Sequence record: NC_070980.1 | From: Escherichia phage vB_EcoP_SU7 | Length of the DNA stretch: 64,000 bases | Strand: one strand, 5' to 3' | In this document: positions 50,887-57,706 of the stretch, in pieces | Layout of the letters: the number at the start of each line of letters is the position of its first letter | Numbering within the stretch: the first letter of the stretch is position 1 | The notes under the pieces: model-generated | Database searches by the model: none | Seen by the model: only the letters and a program-made list of their open reading frames with translations | What the model was told of the DNA's origin: nothing | Made by a program: the position numbers and the translations under genes

Positions 50887-51253
50887 AACTTCTCCTGTTT
50901 ATCACATTGATTGGTCAGCCAGTTGTAAGCCCCTCTGTTGTTCTTGCTTAACTCACAAGATGCAAAAGAATAGGTTCTGACAAACCCTACGGTGGCTAAG
51001 CAAATAAAGATTGCTGCCAATAAGAACTTAACTTTCAACTTATTATCCATACAACCTCTTCTTTGAACTTAAAAAAGGACTCTCCTAAGAGAGCCAAGCT
51101 TTAAGGCCAATTAAATAGATATCACCCAATATCTGTGGATAACCTGCTCTTAAAATATTCTATCCGACGGATGTTCGAGGATTACTCCTCTCCCTAGCAT
51201 CGGCCCCATACGGGTAAGATTAAATTAAGATTAGGTTAGTTGAGCCAGAATAG

Positions 51254-51287
51254 CTCACATAGCCCTCTGATACTCACAAGGGCTATA
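51254..51287 (-). repeat. conserved hairpin element (copy 1) just 3' of a paralog gene
   Basis: CTCAC-ATAGCCCT-12 nt-AGGGCTAT; 8-bp stem 51259-51266 / 51279-51286; no U-run. Confidence 0.5.
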
Positions 51288-51291
51288 GATG

Positions 51292-51540
51292 TTACTCTGT
51301 GGCTCCGTCGAAGCGGAGGATTGCTGCTGGGGCAGGGTATACTTCCAGATCTTCATCCAGTCGGTACAGGTGCCCTGTGCTTAAATTTACAGCTGTTACT
51401 GGCTTAGAGTGACCTCCAGCCTGTATGGAAGGGACTCTGATAAAGAACTCTTCCGGATATTCAACAGCGTGGAACACACTCCCTGAATAGAGATTCTTTA
51501 TTTTGGAAGTTTGTTTAGGAGTTTTATCGGCAATTTGCAT
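51292..51540 (-). CDS. small protein, multi-copy early paralog family
   Basis: Shares …LS.G.VF……H..V.L..G.L..L.ED.EV.P.P with 52661-52924, 52928-53182, 55147-55398, 56112-56342. Confidence 0.5.
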   Translation of the reverse strand: MQIADKTPKQTSKIKNLYSGSVFHAVEYPEEFFIRVPSIQAGGHSKPVTAVNLSTGHLYRLDEDLEVYPAPAAILRFDGATE

Positions 51541-51773
51541 TACAGACCTTTCTTAGCACGATCTTTGGCAGTTTTGCCAGTGCGAATACGGTGGGAAACA
51601 TTAACCAGTTCGCCGCCTTCGACGATGGTTACGCTTTTGTTTTTCGCAATATCAAACACAGTCTTCTCTGTACCGCCCAGACGGATCTGTTTAGGTTCGC
51701 TGTGGGTCTGAGTTGATTTAGACTGGAACTGGAACGGCTGACGGATGGCATCAATTGCGCTAACTTTAGACAT
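51540..51773 (-). CDS. small hypothetical protein
   Basis: 77-aa ORF coupled to neighbours. Confidence 0.45.
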   Translation of the reverse strand: MSKVSAIDAIRQPFQFQSKSTQTHSEPKQIRLGGTEKTVFDIAKNKSVTIVEGGELVNVSHRIRTGKTAKDRAKKGL

Positions 51774-51800
51774 GTTTTATTACCTTATTTTAAAGAGAGA

Positions 51801-52229
51801 TTAAACAACAAATTGGAACGCTTCGTATCCAAACTTGTAAGAGAAGTCATGCTTGAATTTCACTACACGACCACAATCACGGAAAGATTTCAAACGGCTA
51901 CTGAACCCAGCCATCGGCTCAGGGTCGATAGGGCTACGAATCTTCATAGCTACAGAGTGCAGCTTGAAGCGTTTACCAGTGCTACAGGCCATCATCACAT
52001 ACTCCATACGAGTAGTCCAGATGTTGAGCACCATGCTTGTTTTCTCCGCTGACCAACCAGTCTTGCGGGCGATTTCCTTGTGGACATTAAGCTCCAAAGG
52101 AAGAGGGAATTGCTTGTTGAATGAAGCCGGATATAGCTTGACCAGAAGATCAATGTTTTCTTTATACGTGAGGTAAGCCAATTTCTTGCTTACGTTGGGG
52201 AATTTCCCAGCCATTTTTTGAAGCTCCAA
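51801..52229 (-). CDS. ProQ/FinO-domain-like RNA-binding protein
   Basis: …LYPASFNKQFPLPLELNVHKEIARKTGWSAEKTSMVLNIWTTR… resembles the ProQ N-terminal domain. Confidence 0.4.
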   Translation of the reverse strand: MELQKMAGKFPNVSKKLAYLTYKENIDLLVKLYPASFNKQFPLPLELNVHKEIARKTGWSAEKTSMVLNIWTTRMEYVMMACSTGKRFKLHSVAMKIRSPIDPEPMAGFSSRLKSFRDCGRVVKFKHDFSYKFGYEAFQFVV

Positions 52230-52413
52230 AACAGCGCCGAAAAGAGAGGCGTCATAGTAGTTAAAAGGAGGAGAGAAGAGAGCTTATTTACTTGCCTTTT
52301 TCTGTCCGTTAATGTACCAGATAACTGAGCCGTCAGGCTGTCGTTGACCGAAACCTTTCAGGTTAACCATTTCTTCTTCAGAGTAGGCACGTTTTCTCAC
52401 TGATTTTCTCCTG

Positions 52414-52671
52414 TCAATAGAAGGTGTGTGTAGAGTCGTCGTTCATAGATAACCAAACGAAGAAGACAATCACACAGAAAGCAATAACACCGAGAATTGC
52501 AAGGATTATAGTGTTAGCTAATGTGATATCTAACACGCTTTGCAGATACATAAAGAACTGTACGACACCACATATCATTAGCACAACCCCAATAATAATA
52601 AGGAGCCAGTACGTGCAGAGAAGGGCTGCATCCAATAGCGATACATACTTTGGATGGTCTTTATGTTTCAC
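52414..52671 (-). CDS. small polytopic membrane protein
   Basis: 85 aa with 2-3 hydrophobic helices. Confidence 0.45.
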   Translation of the reverse strand: MKHKDHPKYVSLLDAALLCTYWLLIIIGVVLMICGVVQFFMYLQSVLDITLANTIILAILGVIAFCVIVFFVWLSMNDDSTHTFY

Positions 52672-52924
52672 TGATCTTCTCCACTAAATCCAGAGTTGCT
52701 GATTCAAACACAATACCAACTGGCATATTGGATGCCATATTACGAACGTATCCACTCTGCATAGACACAGCTCGGTGGTATTCACAACCATTAGAGCTTT
52801 TGTTCACTTTCATGTAAATGGTTTGTTCTTTATCTTCTTTCAAAGTAAAGAAAGAACCGATAGAAACACCTGCCACCATTAGAGGAATATCCGCAATACG
52901 AGTTTTGTTAATGGTCAGAGCCAT
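52661..52924 (-). CDS. small protein, early paralog family
   Basis: Family pattern as for 51292-51540. Confidence 0.45.
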   Translation of the reverse strand: MALTINKTRIADIPLMVAGVSIGSFFTLKEDKEQTIYMKVNKSSNGCEYHRAVSMQSGYVRNMASNMPVGIVFESATLDLVEKISET

Positions 52925-52927
52925 TGC

Positions 52928-53182
52928 TTACTCCTTAATAGTTGCTTCAGCTTTAATAGGAATAACAGCAACATCTTTACGAGGAGCTGTCGCTCGGCCT
53001 GTGTTAAGACAGGCTACAAGTCTATGCTCATCCGCACCCTTAATGCAGAGTCGAGTTGAGAACTCTGTAGATAGTAAGATGTACAAATCACCATCTTCAC
53101 TGTTAGGGTACATGAAGCAATCCCCAAGACGCAGAGCGCTGAGTGGTATTGCGTTCTTACTGGCTGGTTTGTTGACTTTCAT
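52928..53182 (-). CDS. small protein, early paralog family
   Basis: LSALRLGDCF…HRLVACLNTG…DVAVIPI. Confidence 0.45.
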   Translation of the reverse strand: MKVNKPASKNAIPLSALRLGDCFMYPNSEDGDLYILLSTEFSTRLCIKGADEHRLVACLNTGRATAPRKDVAVIPIKAEATIKE

Positions 53183-53458
53183 TTTACCACCTTTAGTTAT
53201 GGACCAATTTATGAGAGAACTCTCGGAAGAATGCTTTCATAAATAGGGGGAGGGGACGAATCCTCCCATATCCTATTAATTAATGTTGCATGTAAGACCT
53301 AACAATCCGATGCTGTAGTGGATAGCGTAAAACGCTTACCGGCATTAAACCCAGCCCATGAGGGGCTTATGTGAATAAAATGCTCAACATTGAGCGGTTA
53401 GTTGATAGGAGATCTGAAGTCCTATCTCAAAGGACTCTCGTAAGAATCCTTCACGATA

Positions 53459-53725
53459 TTACTTAGTAACAAAGATTGTCACCTTATCCATTACCCAACC
53501 TATCAACATAAGTAAAGGTAAGAAGAGGATAAAGATCAGCATAAAAGGCCAGAAGAATATCACCGTCCAAATAGAGTATTCATCAGGCTTACCACTCCAT
53601 GAGGAATGGAAGAAGTTGTAGAGTGTATTGGTTTTGAAGCACCATTTAACTACAATGGCTGCCAACCACCAACCAATAACATAAATCAGGAGGACATACG
53701 CTGCTGTAACCATTGACCGTTCCAT
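53459..53725 (-). CDS. small polytopic membrane protein
   Basis: 88 aa with 3 hydrophobic helices. Confidence 0.45.
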   Translation of the reverse strand: MERSMVTAAYVLLIYVIGWWLAAIVVKWCFKTNTLYNFFHSSWSGKPDEYSIWTVIFFWPFMLIFILFLPLLMLIGWVMDKVTIFVTK

Positions 53726-53940
53726 TGATAGTTGCGAGTGACCACGTTTCCGTGGATAAGAAAGTGCTGTCGGCGAAGTATATCTTTAACGTTGTAATAA
53801 GCAGCGTTTCCAAGATGACCTTCTTTGACAAGCCAACGCAGGTTTTGAATATCAACCAACAACATTTTTACTTGCTGTTGGCATGAAGTCTTAGCCGCTG
53901 TTTCAAGTAAAGCTTTTGTATCAGAATAATGACCAGACAT
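53686..53940 (-). CDS. hypothetical protein
   Basis: 84-aa ORF. Confidence 0.4.
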   Translation of the reverse strand: MSGHYSDTKALLETAAKTSCQQQVKMLLVDIQNLRWLVKEGHLGNAAYYNVKDILRRQHFLIHGNVVTRNYQWNGQWLQQRMSS

Positions 53941-53941
53941 A

Positions 53942-54268
53942 TCACCACTCCTTACCCTTTGTTGTCACAGAGCCACTACATTGCACACCACGGGAGATAA
54001 AGTCGTATCGTGACCAATCACCTTGTGTTTCCATGTCACGTTTTGCATAAGCTTTCTCGTCAACAGCACCGCCATTAGAACAAGAAGCGCCAGCATAACG
54101 CATATCAATTTCACCGCTAGGAACCTTCTCCCCACTATGCCAACGGGAAACACAGACACCTTCTACAGATAATGCACACCACCCATCAGGACGATGCTGT
54201 ACACAGCCTGTAAGAGCTACACAGGCGATAAAGATACAGGTTAAGGTAATTACACCACCCCAGCTCAT
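53942..54268 (-). CDS. lipoprotein (candidate superinfection-exclusion / receptor-blocking)
   Basis: Signal peptide with lipobox LTGC; 108 aa. Confidence 0.45.
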   Translation of the reverse strand: MSWGGVITLTCIFIACVALTGCVQHRPDGWCALSVEGVCVSRWHSGEKVPSGEIDMRYAGASCSNGGAVDEKAYAKRDMETQGDWSRYDFISRGVQCSGSVTTKGKEW

Positions 54269-54422
54269 GATCCCTCCTGAAGCGCCTTACGGCGGCTATC
54301 TCGCCAAGCCATCCATAGGTAGGTTTTAAGTTCTTCTCTTTCTTCTTCGCTGAACAAAGGAGAAGTAAAGATATCATCGAACCACTCATTAAACTCAGGG
54401 GTCATAAACCCTCCTACGTTGA

Positions 54423-54498
54423 TTGGTGCACCCTACAGGATTCGAACCTGTAACCAACGACTTAGAAGGTCGCTGCTCTGTCCATTGAGCTAAGGGTG
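54423..54498 (-). tRNA. tRNA-Arg (anticodon UCU)
   Basis: Minus-strand read GCACCCT-TA-GCTC…GAGC-A-GCGAC-CUUCUAA-GUCGU…ACAGG-UUCGAAU-CCUGU-AGGGUGC-A-CCA folds as a canonical cloverleaf with encoded CCA. Confidence 0.85.
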
Positions 54499-54508
54499 CT
54501 GGATTTGT

Positions 54509-54760
54509 TTAACTGAAAATACGCAAGGCCACATCATGACCGATATGACCGGGAACTTTATGCTGTTCTATTTTCAAACAGTGTTTACAGATACGAGATA
54601 CCCGAGATTCTTTTCTCTCTACTGGAGTATCTTTAGCGTGAGTGATGTGTAGGTTTTCAGTGATCACCCACTCGTGTTTACATCCAGAATCTTCGGGCTT
54701 TTTCTTACGAAAGAACATAACACCCCTTAGATCAGATCTGTTTTCTTGTGCAGACCACAC
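54509..54760 (-). CDS. small zinc-finger protein
   Basis: CKHEW…CKHCLK. Confidence 0.4.
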   Translation of the reverse strand: MWSAQENRSDLRGVMFFRKKKPEDSGCKHEWVITENLHITHAKDTPVERKESRVSRICKHCLKIEQHKVPGHIGHDVALRIFS

Positions 54761-54915
54761 ACTTTACAGCGAGAGTAGATACGCAACCCTTGTCGCTCTC
54801 TGTCAGTAAGTTTATTTGTGATCGTCAGTTCATAAGTAGAAAGATCTTCCCACTCATGGAAATGAAAGAGACGCTTGAACCATTTAATCATACTAAGCAC
54901 ACGCCGGTAGTTCAA
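54727..54915 (-). CDS. small zinc-ribbon protein
   Basis: 62 aa; …CKVCGLH…. Confidence 0.35.
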   Translation of the reverse strand: MNYRRVLSMIKWFKRLFHFHEWEDLSTYELTITNKLTDRERQGLRIYSRCKVCGLHKKTDLI

Positions 54916-55150
54916 TTAACTGAGGAGTACGACAAGGACCGTCTTCATACACACCAACCAACGTTGGCATGTAAGGCCCAGCGCACTGGTATTCGTCGAA
55001 CAGTTCATTGTAAGTAGGCTTCCACTTCCAAGCCCACACACAACCCATTCGGTCAATGGCAATGTAACGAGTGTTCAGAGGAACTTGCATCATTACATCA
55101 CCAACTGCTATTACTTTAGTAATAACTGCTGCTCGGAAGTTTGTCTTCAT
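54893..55150 (-). CDS. small hypothetical protein
   Basis: 85-aa ORF. Confidence 0.4.
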   Translation of the reverse strand: MKTNFRAAVITKVIAVGDVMMQVPLNTRYIAIDRMGCVWAWKWKPTYNELFDEYQCAGPYMPTLVGVYEDGPCRTPQLIELPACA

Positions 55151-55398
55151 GGTGATTTAATCTCAATCTGAACACTGACAACAAATACAGTATGGTTTGC
55201 ACTGTACACCGAAGTGCCGATGATTGGCTTATCATCACTGAGGATTTCAACAGCGTGATCGAGGTTGATCTTCAGATGAAGACGACCTGATTCCATGAAG
55301 AAATCACCAGCACGTATCTCACCGAACTTAGCTGGCACACCGATAGAAGGTATCAGTATGTCAGTGCGACCTTTACGGTCAAATAAACGATTGAACAT
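55147..55398 (-). CDS. small protein, early paralog family
   Basis: FGEIRAGDFF…LHLKINLDHAV; start set at internal ATG 55398. Confidence 0.45.
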   Translation of the reverse strand: MFNRLFDRKGRTDILIPSIGVPAKFGEIRAGDFFMESGRLHLKINLDHAVEILSDDKPIIGTSVYSANHTVFVVSVQIEIKSP

Positions 55399-55448
55399 AT
55401 CAACCTCTCTTGTTAGTTTAAGTAAGAGTTGTCCCTTAATTAAAACAA

Positions 55449-55478
55449 CAAAGGCCACCCCGAAGGGCAGCCTCTTAT
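55449..55478 (-). terminator. rho-independent terminator (minus strand)
   Basis: GC-rich imperfect hairpin plus U-rich tract on the minus transcript after the 55478 stop. Confidence 0.4.
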
Positions 55479-55687
55479 TAAGCACTACGCAACTTGTTGT
55501 TCAAGAAGCGATCCTCTGCATTATATAGGAATGCATAGAACAATTCTTTTGCTACATCCCGATCGCAATTGAGACATTTAGAAACCTGTAACAACAGGCC
55601 ATCGCGACTGTTAGGGTGGTCAATTATCGCAAGACGAATAATCTCAAGAATACCAACATCATGCTCAGCCGCCATAGAACCAATCAC
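55478..55687 (-). CDS. small hypothetical protein
   Basis: 69-aa ORF. Confidence 0.4.
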   Translation of the reverse strand: MIGSMAAEHDVGILEIIRLAIIDHPNSRDGLLLQVSKCLNCDRDVAKELFYAFLYNAEDRFLNNKLRSA

Positions 55688-56065
55688 CTTGACGCTTACG
55701 GATGTTAGTTGTCAGACGAAGCATGGCAGACTCAATCTTCAGAGCACCATTTGCTACTGCATCCATACGTTCAGGACGGTTCATACGCTTGGTTGACTTC
55801 TTCATAACGTTCTCTCTTTGTTAATGGAGGCAGGATTGCCAGTTAATATAAAGGGAAGCCCTACACGTTAAGGCTTCCGCTTGTACAAACTGTCGAGAAC
55901 TCTCTACCCCTAGATTGTTCTCTATCCCAAACCGATACATACCCCTACATATCGGAAAGCTGTTCGAAAATTAACAGGTTTTAGTCTATCACCGGATGTT
56001 TGAGACAAGTCTCGCCCTAGCGGTGAGCCATATGGCGTTGAGATTATAGTTAATTGAGGAACACC

Positions 56066-56099
56066 CTCACATAGCCCTCTGATAAACACAAGGGCTATA
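56066..56099 (-). repeat. conserved hairpin element (copy 2) just 3' of a paralog gene
   Basis: CTCAC-ATAGCCCT-12 nt-AGGGCTAT, near-identical to 51254-51287. Confidence 0.5.
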
Positions 56100-56111
56100 A
56101 GTCGATGTTAC

Positions 56112-56342
56112 TTAACCATTGATATGAGTTACTTGAACATCAGGTACAGGGATAACTTCATGGTCTTCCTGTAATTGGAACAGTGTCCCCTGACTAAGAC
56201 CAACCACACGATGCATATCGTTAAGGCTAGTGTCTGTCTTTAGGTAGACATTTTCAGAGTTAGTTGGTAAACGGAACACATCGCCCGGACGTAACTCACT
56301 GAGCTTTTTAGTAACAACTACAGAGAAGAGATTAATTTTCAT
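56112..56342 (-). CDS. small protein, early paralog family
   Basis: LSELRPGDVF…HRVVGLSQGTLFQLQEDHEVIPVP. Confidence 0.5.
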   Translation of the reverse strand: MKINLFSVVVTKKLSELRPGDVFRLPTNSENVYLKTDTSLNDMHRVVGLSQGTLFQLQEDHEVIPVPDVQVTHING

Positions 56343-57392: not shown

Positions 57393-57443
57393 AAGTAGCT
57401 GTGCTGTCGTTATCAGAACTTACTACCCCCTGTTTTACGGGCA

Positions 57444-57471
57444 TAAAAAAGCCCCATCCGAAGACGGGGCG
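57444..57471 (-). terminator. rho-independent terminator (minus strand)
   Basis: GCCCC-ATCCGAAGAC-GGGGC hairpin with U-run on the minus transcript. Confidence 0.5.
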
Positions 57472-57706
57472 ACCTGAAAAGTGAACATGACCTCACTCAT
57501 TTAAAAATCCTCGCAAAGACTCTTAAAAAGCGGCCTCGTTAAAGGCCCGGTCAAATGACCATCCAATAGGGATTGAACCATGCCAATGATTCACAAAGGG
57601 AGTTCCCTTTAGGCATCACTAGCTACGCAAAAAGCCGCACAGAGGCGGCAGACAAAAGACGCTCAAGAAGAGCGTCATAGTAGTTGACCACTGGTACAGA
57701 AGGGGC

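Follow-up and report, generated by a model that had tools for sequence, protein, structure and literature searches.

A paralogous, covarying RNA module in the early operon of Escherichia phage vB_EcoP_SU7 and related phages

The put RNA of phage HK022 is approximately 70 nucleotides (nt) long, folds into two stem-loops, lies near promoters and makes RNA polymerase resistant to terminators in cis. The T7-type RNase III signal consists of approximately 20 bp of double-stranded RNA, formed by two stems around an internal loop. An element that shares features with both was analysed here in a 64,000-nt stretch of Escherichia phage vB_EcoP_SU7 (sequence record NC_070980.1), which is referred to in its full length as the window and supplies all coordinates unless stated otherwise. 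A preliminary description of this DNA had pointed to two similar hairpins, each placed shortly after the stop codon of a small gene, and had treated gene plus hairpin as a duplicated unit. The two hairpins were shown to be helix P1 of two paralogous structured RNA modules of approximately 135 nt, which lie on the minus strand of the early operon.

The two hairpins as helix P1 of a larger RNA module

The hairpin pattern ATAGCCCT-N12-AGGGCTAT was found at two sites only in the 64 kb, 51259-51286 and 56071-56098, and had no match in 100 shuffles. Together with its CTCAC flank the hairpin ranks first among the direct repeats found in the window (34 nt, 94% identity between the two sites), so that the pair of hairpins lacking a U-run had been described correctly. 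All plausible open reading frames (ORFs) between 50 and 58 kb are on the minus strand, and the elements are therefore read on this strand, the gene-sense strand. In transcript order the stop codon is followed by 5 nt (A) or 13 nt (B), the hairpin and then GUGAG, with no U-run after the stem. P1 does not have the form of an intrinsic terminator, a GC-rich stem running directly into a U-run; the earlier view that it is not one was borne out, as GUGAG follows P1 and the true terminator lies 160-230 nt downstream in the same intergenic region (IGR). The hairpin is not an isolated structure, as had been assumed, and instead forms part of a module with at least five helices and strongly conserved unpaired nucleotides. 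The IGRs and the parts of the module are as follows.

51051-51291: IGR A, a long non-coding gap opened by hairpin A; the next gene starts with the ATG at 51050
55806-56111: IGR B, a long non-coding gap opened by hairpin B; the next gene starts at 55805
53183-53458: IGR C, a third non-coding gap
51157-51296, minus strand: module A, covariance-model match of 128.9 bits (E=2.6e-28)
55982-56112, minus strand: module B, covariance-model match of 106.9 bits (E=3.5e-23), organised in the same way as module A
51258-51287, minus strand: P1 of module A, stem base UAUAGCC/GGCUAU(G) conserved, top variable
56070-56100, minus strand: P1 of module B, the second hairpin of the preliminary description
51225-51238, minus strand: junction J, UAACCU-AA-UCUUAA, which pairs with UUAAGA-GC-AGGUUA at 51140-51153
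51164-51214, minus strand: core of module A
51205-51214: P3 of module A, 3 bp with an RUAU loop
51198-51203 with 51164-51169: P4 of module A, 6 bp
51191-51197 and 51170-51176: conserved internal loop of module A, consensus CUAGGGN / N'AACAUC
51177-51190: P5 of module A, a hairpin
53396-53463, minus strand: partial copy C, made up of AGUAAU, a P1-like 9-bp hairpin, a second hairpin and AACUAACC
53430-53451 and 53404-53426: the two hairpins of copy C, the first of 9 bp with a UACG loop

Module A begins with AGUAAC and continues through P0, P1 and P2, junction J, P3, P4, the internal loop CUAGGGA/GAACAUC and P5 to its 3' end at AUAGA; in module B the internal loop is CUAGGGC/AAACAUC. GUGAG leads into the short P2 hairpin, and J is A/U-rich. 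The J helix closes the P3-P4-P5 domain and was predicted by the single-sequence minimum free energy (MFE) fold of A, and an analogous closing helix is present in the MFE fold of B.

The covariance model was built from an alignment of 30 distinct A and B copies taken from Kuravirus, Nieuwekanaalvirus, the 7-11 group and metagenomic contigs. Over 24 pairs in these 30 copies, 99.0% of cells were paired, compared with 34-47% when the partners were slid by one to three columns, and nine pairs changed on both sides. The covariation score was 0.297, whereas the slid controls did not exceed 0.069 and the shuffles did not exceed 0.118. When the A-type copies were taken alone, 10 pairs showed double changes. 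RNAalifold recovered P1, P3, P4 and P5, and single-sequence folds of A and B gave z-scores of -2.6 and -3.3, respectively. The J duplex is maintained in all lineages, at energies between -9.5 and -15.2 kcal/mol and through compensatory changes that differ from lineage to lineage, and three pairs in its second half (helix 6) changed on both sides. Positions N and N' of the internal loop covary as A..G or C..A, which is a non-Watson-Crick pattern.

P1 varies in a way that is informative about strand. In phiEco32 the stem base AUAGCC/GGCUAU of the A hairpin is kept, the 12-nt loop is replaced by cUUCGg and a U.G pair is gained. Phage Bas93 has a UCCG-type top and a U-A pair where the window phage has C-G, and phage 7-11 has a 10-bp stem with a CCCG loop; across copies the P1 loop is 12 nt, UUCG, UCCG, UACG or CCCG. 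Since G.U wobbles and UNCG tetraloops fit the minus strand only, this is a feature of the RNA on the gene-sense strand. The preliminary description had thus correctly placed the feature at the RNA level and outside the class of intrinsic terminators, but had missed the larger module and drawn the unit wrongly. The module is clearly under selection.

At the 5' end, four pairs (AGUA with UAUU) enclose P1 and form P0, which was 100% paired with one A-U to G-C double change among A-type copies. P0 comprises 4-6 bp, followed by a 3/4-nt internal loop and then the 9-10 bp of P1. P2 also shows one double change in the A-type copies, from U-A to C-G. The full P0 and P2 compete for two nucleotides, and the 5' domain may therefore be a pseudoknot or a switch.

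When the covariance model was run across the window, exactly two full copies (A and B) were recovered, together with a weak match in IGR C (15.2 bits, E=0.11) that covers the 5' half only. Copy C has no P4/P5 core and is present in all kuraviruses examined. In Salmonella phage 7-11, AGUAAU and a P1-like UUAAGCC...GGCUUA hairpin with a U-rich tail occur right after the gp126 stop codon (429-470 of the stretch of that phage). This suggests that the 5' sub-module also occurs on its own.

No family of Rfam 15 reached its gathering threshold in the window except tRNA-Arg, and a search of IGR A and IGR B in E-value mode gave sub-threshold chance matches only, driven by the terminator. The literature searched contained no paper linking these phages to small RNAs (sRNAs) or structured RNAs. 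The module appears to represent a new family of RNA, confined to phages of the Kuravirus-like and 7-11-like types.

Conservation across phages and the genes around the module

The Kuravirus coliphages Bas87, EK010, ECBP2 and others (phiEco32-like) are 93-97% identical to the window phage, itself a coliphage of this group, across a 5.7-kb region of the window. IGR A was found in 102 phage records and IGR B in 97, at 80-99% identity, and all three IGRs are kept across phiEco32-like phages. Even Salmonella phage 7-11, whose classification places it in a different family, retains approximately 70% identity in IGR A; a comparison of the window phage (40-64 kb) with 18 kb of 7-11 gave three DNA-level alignments, namely IGR A and two enzyme genes. 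With the covariance model, one module copy was found per 18-kb stretch of each 7-11-type phage searched, and none was found in Cronobacter phage GAP52, despite the same operon layout. A 21-base pattern searched in viral, metagenome and genome collections was present only in Kuravirus and 7-11-type contigs, besides a few chance matches. An IMG/VR search with the pattern GCTAGGG-N8-30-AACATCCG was discarded as too loose (120 loci, mostly chance), and a search for relatives by the downstream 120-amino-acid protein returned ECBP2 only.

The gene directly upstream of module A varies. In phiEco32 it is a homologue of phi32_91, in Bas91 of phi32_92, in Bas93 and LAMP of phi32_93, and in 7-11 it is gp112. 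The partial third copy sits after an unrelated membrane-protein ORF, and the similarity between A and B runs approximately 100 nt past the hairpin into the IGR. The gene plus hairpin is consequently not the duplicated unit; the module is a fixed landmark around which small genes come and go. The hairpin is kept in approximately 100 related phages, which is at odds with a recent duplication that lacks conservation in relatives. Only in the lineage of ECBP2, EK010 and the window phage do A and B have the same 12-nt loop, other kuraviruses having a cUUCGg-type loop on A, which suggests that the near-identity of the A and B hairpins is due to recent local B-to-A conversion and is not ancestral.

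Two small genes adjoin the modules in the window phage.

51292-51540, minus strand: small paralog of 82 amino acids, upstream of module A in this phage only
56112-56342, minus strand: small paralog of 76 amino acids, upstream of module B, a predicted SH3-like beta-barrel

Alignment of these two proteins by BLASTP gave 33% identity (E=5e-8), indicating real but distant paralogs, and the alignment of their flanks gave the similarity of approximately 100 nt beyond the hairpin noted above. Four ORFs (51292-51540, 52661-52924, 52928-53182 and 56112-56342) cross-matched PHROGs 6570/7431/7832/8365/12612/16423 and are related, as had been proposed. The fifth proposed member, 55147-55398, is marginal: it matched its own PHROG only, and its N-terminal half aligned to the family profile with an hhalign probability of 53%. 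The family profile found 198 clusters at 50% identity among 1.8 billion representatives. Structure prediction, which had been put forward as a check on the protein family, gave a generic result, in that an AlphaFold model (predicted local distance difference test, pLDDT, 82) is an SH3-like barrel with no significant match in a search of PDB structures; the nearest folds are RNA- or ribosome-associated (uL2, eIF5A N-domain).

The only family to pass the Rfam threshold in the window is a transfer RNA (tRNA) gene.

54424-54499, minus strand: tRNA-Arg(UCU)

IGR B and IGR C lie on either side of this gene, which is surrounded by small early genes and, in Bas91, is adjoined by a homing-endonuclease gene.

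Operon setting, 3' arms and possible functions

Sigma-70 promoters that serve the early genes 69-125 of SU10 and phiEco32 have been placed upstream of gene 125 and in the interval between genes 120 and 121, and no internal early promoters were reported (PMC4281155). The gp36-dependent promoters are located elsewhere (PMC8948821). The published promoter positions used here are those of the SU10 and 7-11 papers. No sigma-70-like promoter was found within IGR A or IGR B or immediately before them, and no gp36-type promoter (tAATGTAtA) was found in IGR A, IGR B or IGR C; the nearest gp36-like site, at 53485-53493 with one mismatch, is inside the ORF upstream of IGR C. In each IGR the module is followed by a variable arm, which differs between copies, and then by a terminator-like hairpin just before the ribosome-binding site of the next gene.

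51071-51095, minus strand: terminator of unit A, GGCUCUC-UUAG-GAGAGUC plus U6, strong, approximately 20 nt before the ATG at 51050
55845-55878, minus strand: terminal hairpin of unit B, with the weak U-tract CUUUAUAUU
53248-53267, minus strand: terminal hairpin of IGR C, weaker than that of A
55895-55955, minus strand: 3' arm of unit B, with hairpins at 55932-55955 and 55895-55922, each with an invariant UA-GGGG-UA loop
51125-51158, minus strand: antisense segment of unit A, AUAUUUUAAGAGCAGGUUAUCCACAGAUAUUGGG, complementary to the 5' leader of Escherichia coli nrdD
51134-51142, minus strand: perfect DnaA-box sequence TTATCCACA inside the antisense segment, the only zero-mismatch 9-mer in the 64 kb
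57676-57658, 57649-57634, 57547-57532 and 57470-57451, minus strand: four hairpin plus U-run sites

In the A terminator the top of the stem has compensatory changes in the 7-11 group and the U6 run is invariant. The stems of the B arm have compensatory variants across 19 distinct B copies and are supported by RNAalifold. The GGGG loops of the B arm carry a motif similar to the module core loop CUAGGG, and UA-GGGG-UA and CUAGGG may represent a repeated recognition motif for a candidate partner. Just 5' of the A terminator, the stretch UUUAAAG(C/U)UUG at 51096-51112 (minus strand; alignment columns ~195-212) is invariant, and its equivalent in the 7-11 group is the palindrome GCUUUAAAG(C). This stretch could be a dimerisation or protein site. 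Upstream of module B, the gap at 57393-57706 (minus strand) contains the four consecutive terminator-like hairpin and U-run sites listed above, which could be tandem terminators or small RNAs.

Of 5426 complete E. coli genomes, 5325 (98%) contain a single site that matches the antisense segment of unit A at 32 of 34 nt. The host site directly adjoins the nrdD start codon on its upstream side and lies on the other strand, which makes the phage RNA antisense to the nrdD leader ...CCCAAUUUCUGUGGAUAACCUGUUCUUAAAAUAU; pairing stops 1 nt before the GGAG Shine-Dalgarno sequence of nrdD. For a single genome the match has a BLAST score of 54 bits and, by our own calculation, an E-value of ~1e-7. Unit A thus has the extended complementarity near a target ribosome-binding site by which sRNAs are recognized. 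The leader core CUGUGGAUAACCUGUUCU is kept in Salmonella enterica and another enterobacterium, where the flanks differ; the kuraviruses match the E. coli-specific flank, whereas the 7-11-type phages keep approximately 19 bp (including G.U) against the shared core only. A search of 50,697 phage records gave leader matches in E. coli/Shigella phages of the Kuravirus group, the exceptions being one bacterial (Salmonella) record and a short chance match in a Microviridae record.

IGR B and IGR C gave no match to the E. coli genomes, and a long host antisense was therefore rejected, at this sensitivity, as a general feature of the copies. When RNA duplex energies were computed for whole RNAs against host leaders, shuffled controls scored equally well. 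The antisense segment is also the 3' strand of the J helix, and in 7-11 it has diverged from the host yet J pairing is preserved, so the intramolecular structure is certainly under selection. In the E. coli nrdD leader, a weak predicted hairpin (UGUUCU/GGAGCG, at 1492-1520 of the host stretch analysed), whose z-score is not significant, could mask the Shine-Dalgarno sequence, and its 5' strand falls within the stretch complementary to the phage RNA. In phage GAP52, module A is missing from the interval between the endolysin gene and its upstream neighbour, and the phage encodes nrdD and nrdG itself. The examined kuraviruses and 7-11 show the opposite combination, with the module present and no nrdD gene seen in the stretches read.

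We tentatively favour, with less than even confidence, the reading that these are paralogous non-coding RNAs, released from the early operon transcript by cleavage or ended inside the operon by termination. A discrete unit would consist of the module, the variable 3' arm and a closing hairpin with a U-tract, extending from approximately 51296 to 51071 for A and from approximately 56112 to 55845 for B, with C as a degenerate unit. The units would be co-transcribed with the early genes from the far-upstream sigma-70 promoters, each starting directly after the upstream stop codon and having its 3' end set by its own terminator, and partial read-through would supply the genes downstream, for which no separate promoter exists. 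P1 and P0 (AGUAAC with GUUAU) would form a stable 5'-proximal stem that delimits or protects the RNA, as a determinant of processing or stability. The invariant unpaired CUAGGGN / N'AACAUC, GUGAG and AUAGA, and the GGGG loops of B, would form a surface to which a protein or RNA polymerase may bind. A copy-specific function would reside in the variable arm; in A this may be the nrdD antisense, partly masked by J.

Several points weigh against this reading. We infer a discrete and stable RNA from the sequence, the U-tracts that end B and C are weak, and P0 and P2 overlap with one covarying pair each. The need for read-through to the downstream genes would fit a cis-regulatory leader equally well.

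Such a leader, acting on the nascent transcript either by put-like antitermination or by attenuator- or riboswitch-like control of read-through at the adjacent terminator, is possible if somewhat doubtful. The module lies in sense orientation within a single long operon, the promoters published for this operon being kilobases upstream (PMC4281155), and each copy is directly upstream of a terminator-like hairpin that precedes a gene without a promoter. The 7-11 study concluded that an antitermination strategy must exist and left it undefined (PMC8948821), and in vitro transcripts made with gp79 reflected termination at rrnB T1, antitermination not being reported (PMC12276001). The two or three paralogous copies recall putL and putR, an invariant internal loop between covarying helices is typical of ligand- or protein-binding RNA, and the nucleotides shared by P0 and P2, both of which covary, hint at a switch. 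However, no likeness in sequence or architecture to put, nut or any Rfam leader was found, copy B is downstream of the earlier cluster of four terminator-like hairpins, and the A terminator stem has no obvious competing segment. The same operon layout occurs in GAP52 without the element, and the variable 3' arms would be left unexplained.

A lambda-type nut site, with a boxA resembling CGCUCUUA and a boxB with a conserved loop, was also considered and was rejected since the loop of P1 varies between copies. The resemblance of the junction sequences GCUCAACUAAC and CCUCAUUAAC to boxA is only loose.

An extension of the non-coding RNA reading, in which the module is a scaffold for a phage RNA family with exchangeable 3' arms and unit A pairs with the host nrdD leader, is unlikely on present evidence. 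By such pairing, unit A could control the host supply of deoxyribonucleoside triphosphates through nrdD, which encodes the anaerobic ribonucleotide reductase. In the reverse arrangement, abundant nrdD messenger RNA (mRNA) would displace J, refold the phage RNA and alter read-through, making the unit a riboregulator that senses anaerobiosis. The flank-specific matching, the core matching of the Salmonella phages and the lack of the element in GAP52, with its own nrdD and nrdG, are consistent with target-driven selection.

That the element is a processing or stability site only, with P0 and P1 as an RNase III (or RNase E) signal that cuts the early RNA and leaves a protective 3' hairpin on the upstream message, seems quite improbable. 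Its location immediately after stop codons would suit this role, as would the resemblance of P0 (4-6 bp), the asymmetric internal loop and P1 (9-10 bp) to the two-stem T7 layout and the sequence conservation of the stem base and the flanking GUGAG. An RNase III site had been among the types of site originally offered for the hairpin, but P1 with its 9-10 bp is too short for a classical one, and even P0 and P1 together (approximately 15 bp plus the internal loop) fall short of the two turns or so that are typical of RNase III substrates. Approximately 100 further conserved and covarying nucleotides (P3, P4, P5 and the J helix) and the invariant internal loop would also go unexplained.

An element acting at the DNA level, either an operator for a dimeric regulator or a replication or DnaA-controlled site in IGR A, is very improbable. 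The perfect DnaA box TTATCCACA at 51134-51142 is the sole zero-mismatch match in the 64 kb, the surrounding GGTTATCCACAG is invariant from the kuraviruses to 7-11, and the homologous nrdD leader has two DnaA-box sequences in three enterobacteria. DnaA-box-like 9-mers with at most one mismatch are not enriched in the window, however (23 against 17.9 expected), and B and C have no DnaA box. The helices are kept through G.U pairs and compensatory changes while the distal half and loop of P1 are freely replaced, and the wobbles and tetraloops disfavour a double-stranded DNA operator. A functionless, neutral leftover of recent local duplication is scarcely credible: the near-identical A and B hairpin tops, found in this lineage only and suggestive of recent B-to-A conversion, would suit it, but compensatory conservation extends across three genera and is better than that of many neighbouring genes.

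How the early operon of approximately 20 kb and 50 genes is transcribed through several terminators is an acknowledged open question for phiEco32-like phages, and a multi-copy, covariation-supported RNA at those terminators offers a testable handle on it. If true, the nrdD pairing would be a rare example of a specific host mRNA being targeted or sensed by a virulent phage through base-pairing. Many of the related phages are available from culture collections (BASEL Bas86-94, phiEco32 and SU10).

Comparison with described systems

Like HK022 putL and putR, the modules are paralogous structured RNAs on the sense strand of an early operon, upstream of terminators and without a dedicated promoter. 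Unlike put, they have at least five helices in approximately 135 nt plus variable arms, are kilobases from promoters, show no sequence similarity to it and are known here from sequence alone. The T7 early RNase III sites are likewise repeated, related hairpins between early genes, without a U-tract, located after stop codons and built of a lower stem, an internal loop and an upper stem; the helices of the module are shorter, and its hairpin is the first part of a much larger conserved fold.

Unit A resembles the Hfq-type sRNAs of 3' untranslated and intergenic regions, and the prophage RNA DicF, in having a structured body, an antisense segment near the target Shine-Dalgarno sequence and a terminator with a U-tail. 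It differs from these in that its 32/34 complementarity far exceeds typical seeds and is partly sequestered internally, in that the phage is virulent, and in being a prediction from sequence. The stable RNAs C and D of phage T4 are also non-coding phage RNAs amid small early genes near a tRNA gene (here tRNA-Arg at 54424-54499), but there is no sequence relationship to them, and the T4 RNAs are matured together with tRNAs. Riboswitch and attenuator leaders share with the module the arrangement of covarying helices around invariant loops followed by an intrinsic terminator just before a gene, whereas the module matches no Rfam class, no competition between a terminator and an antiterminator was identified, and its copies precede unrelated genes.

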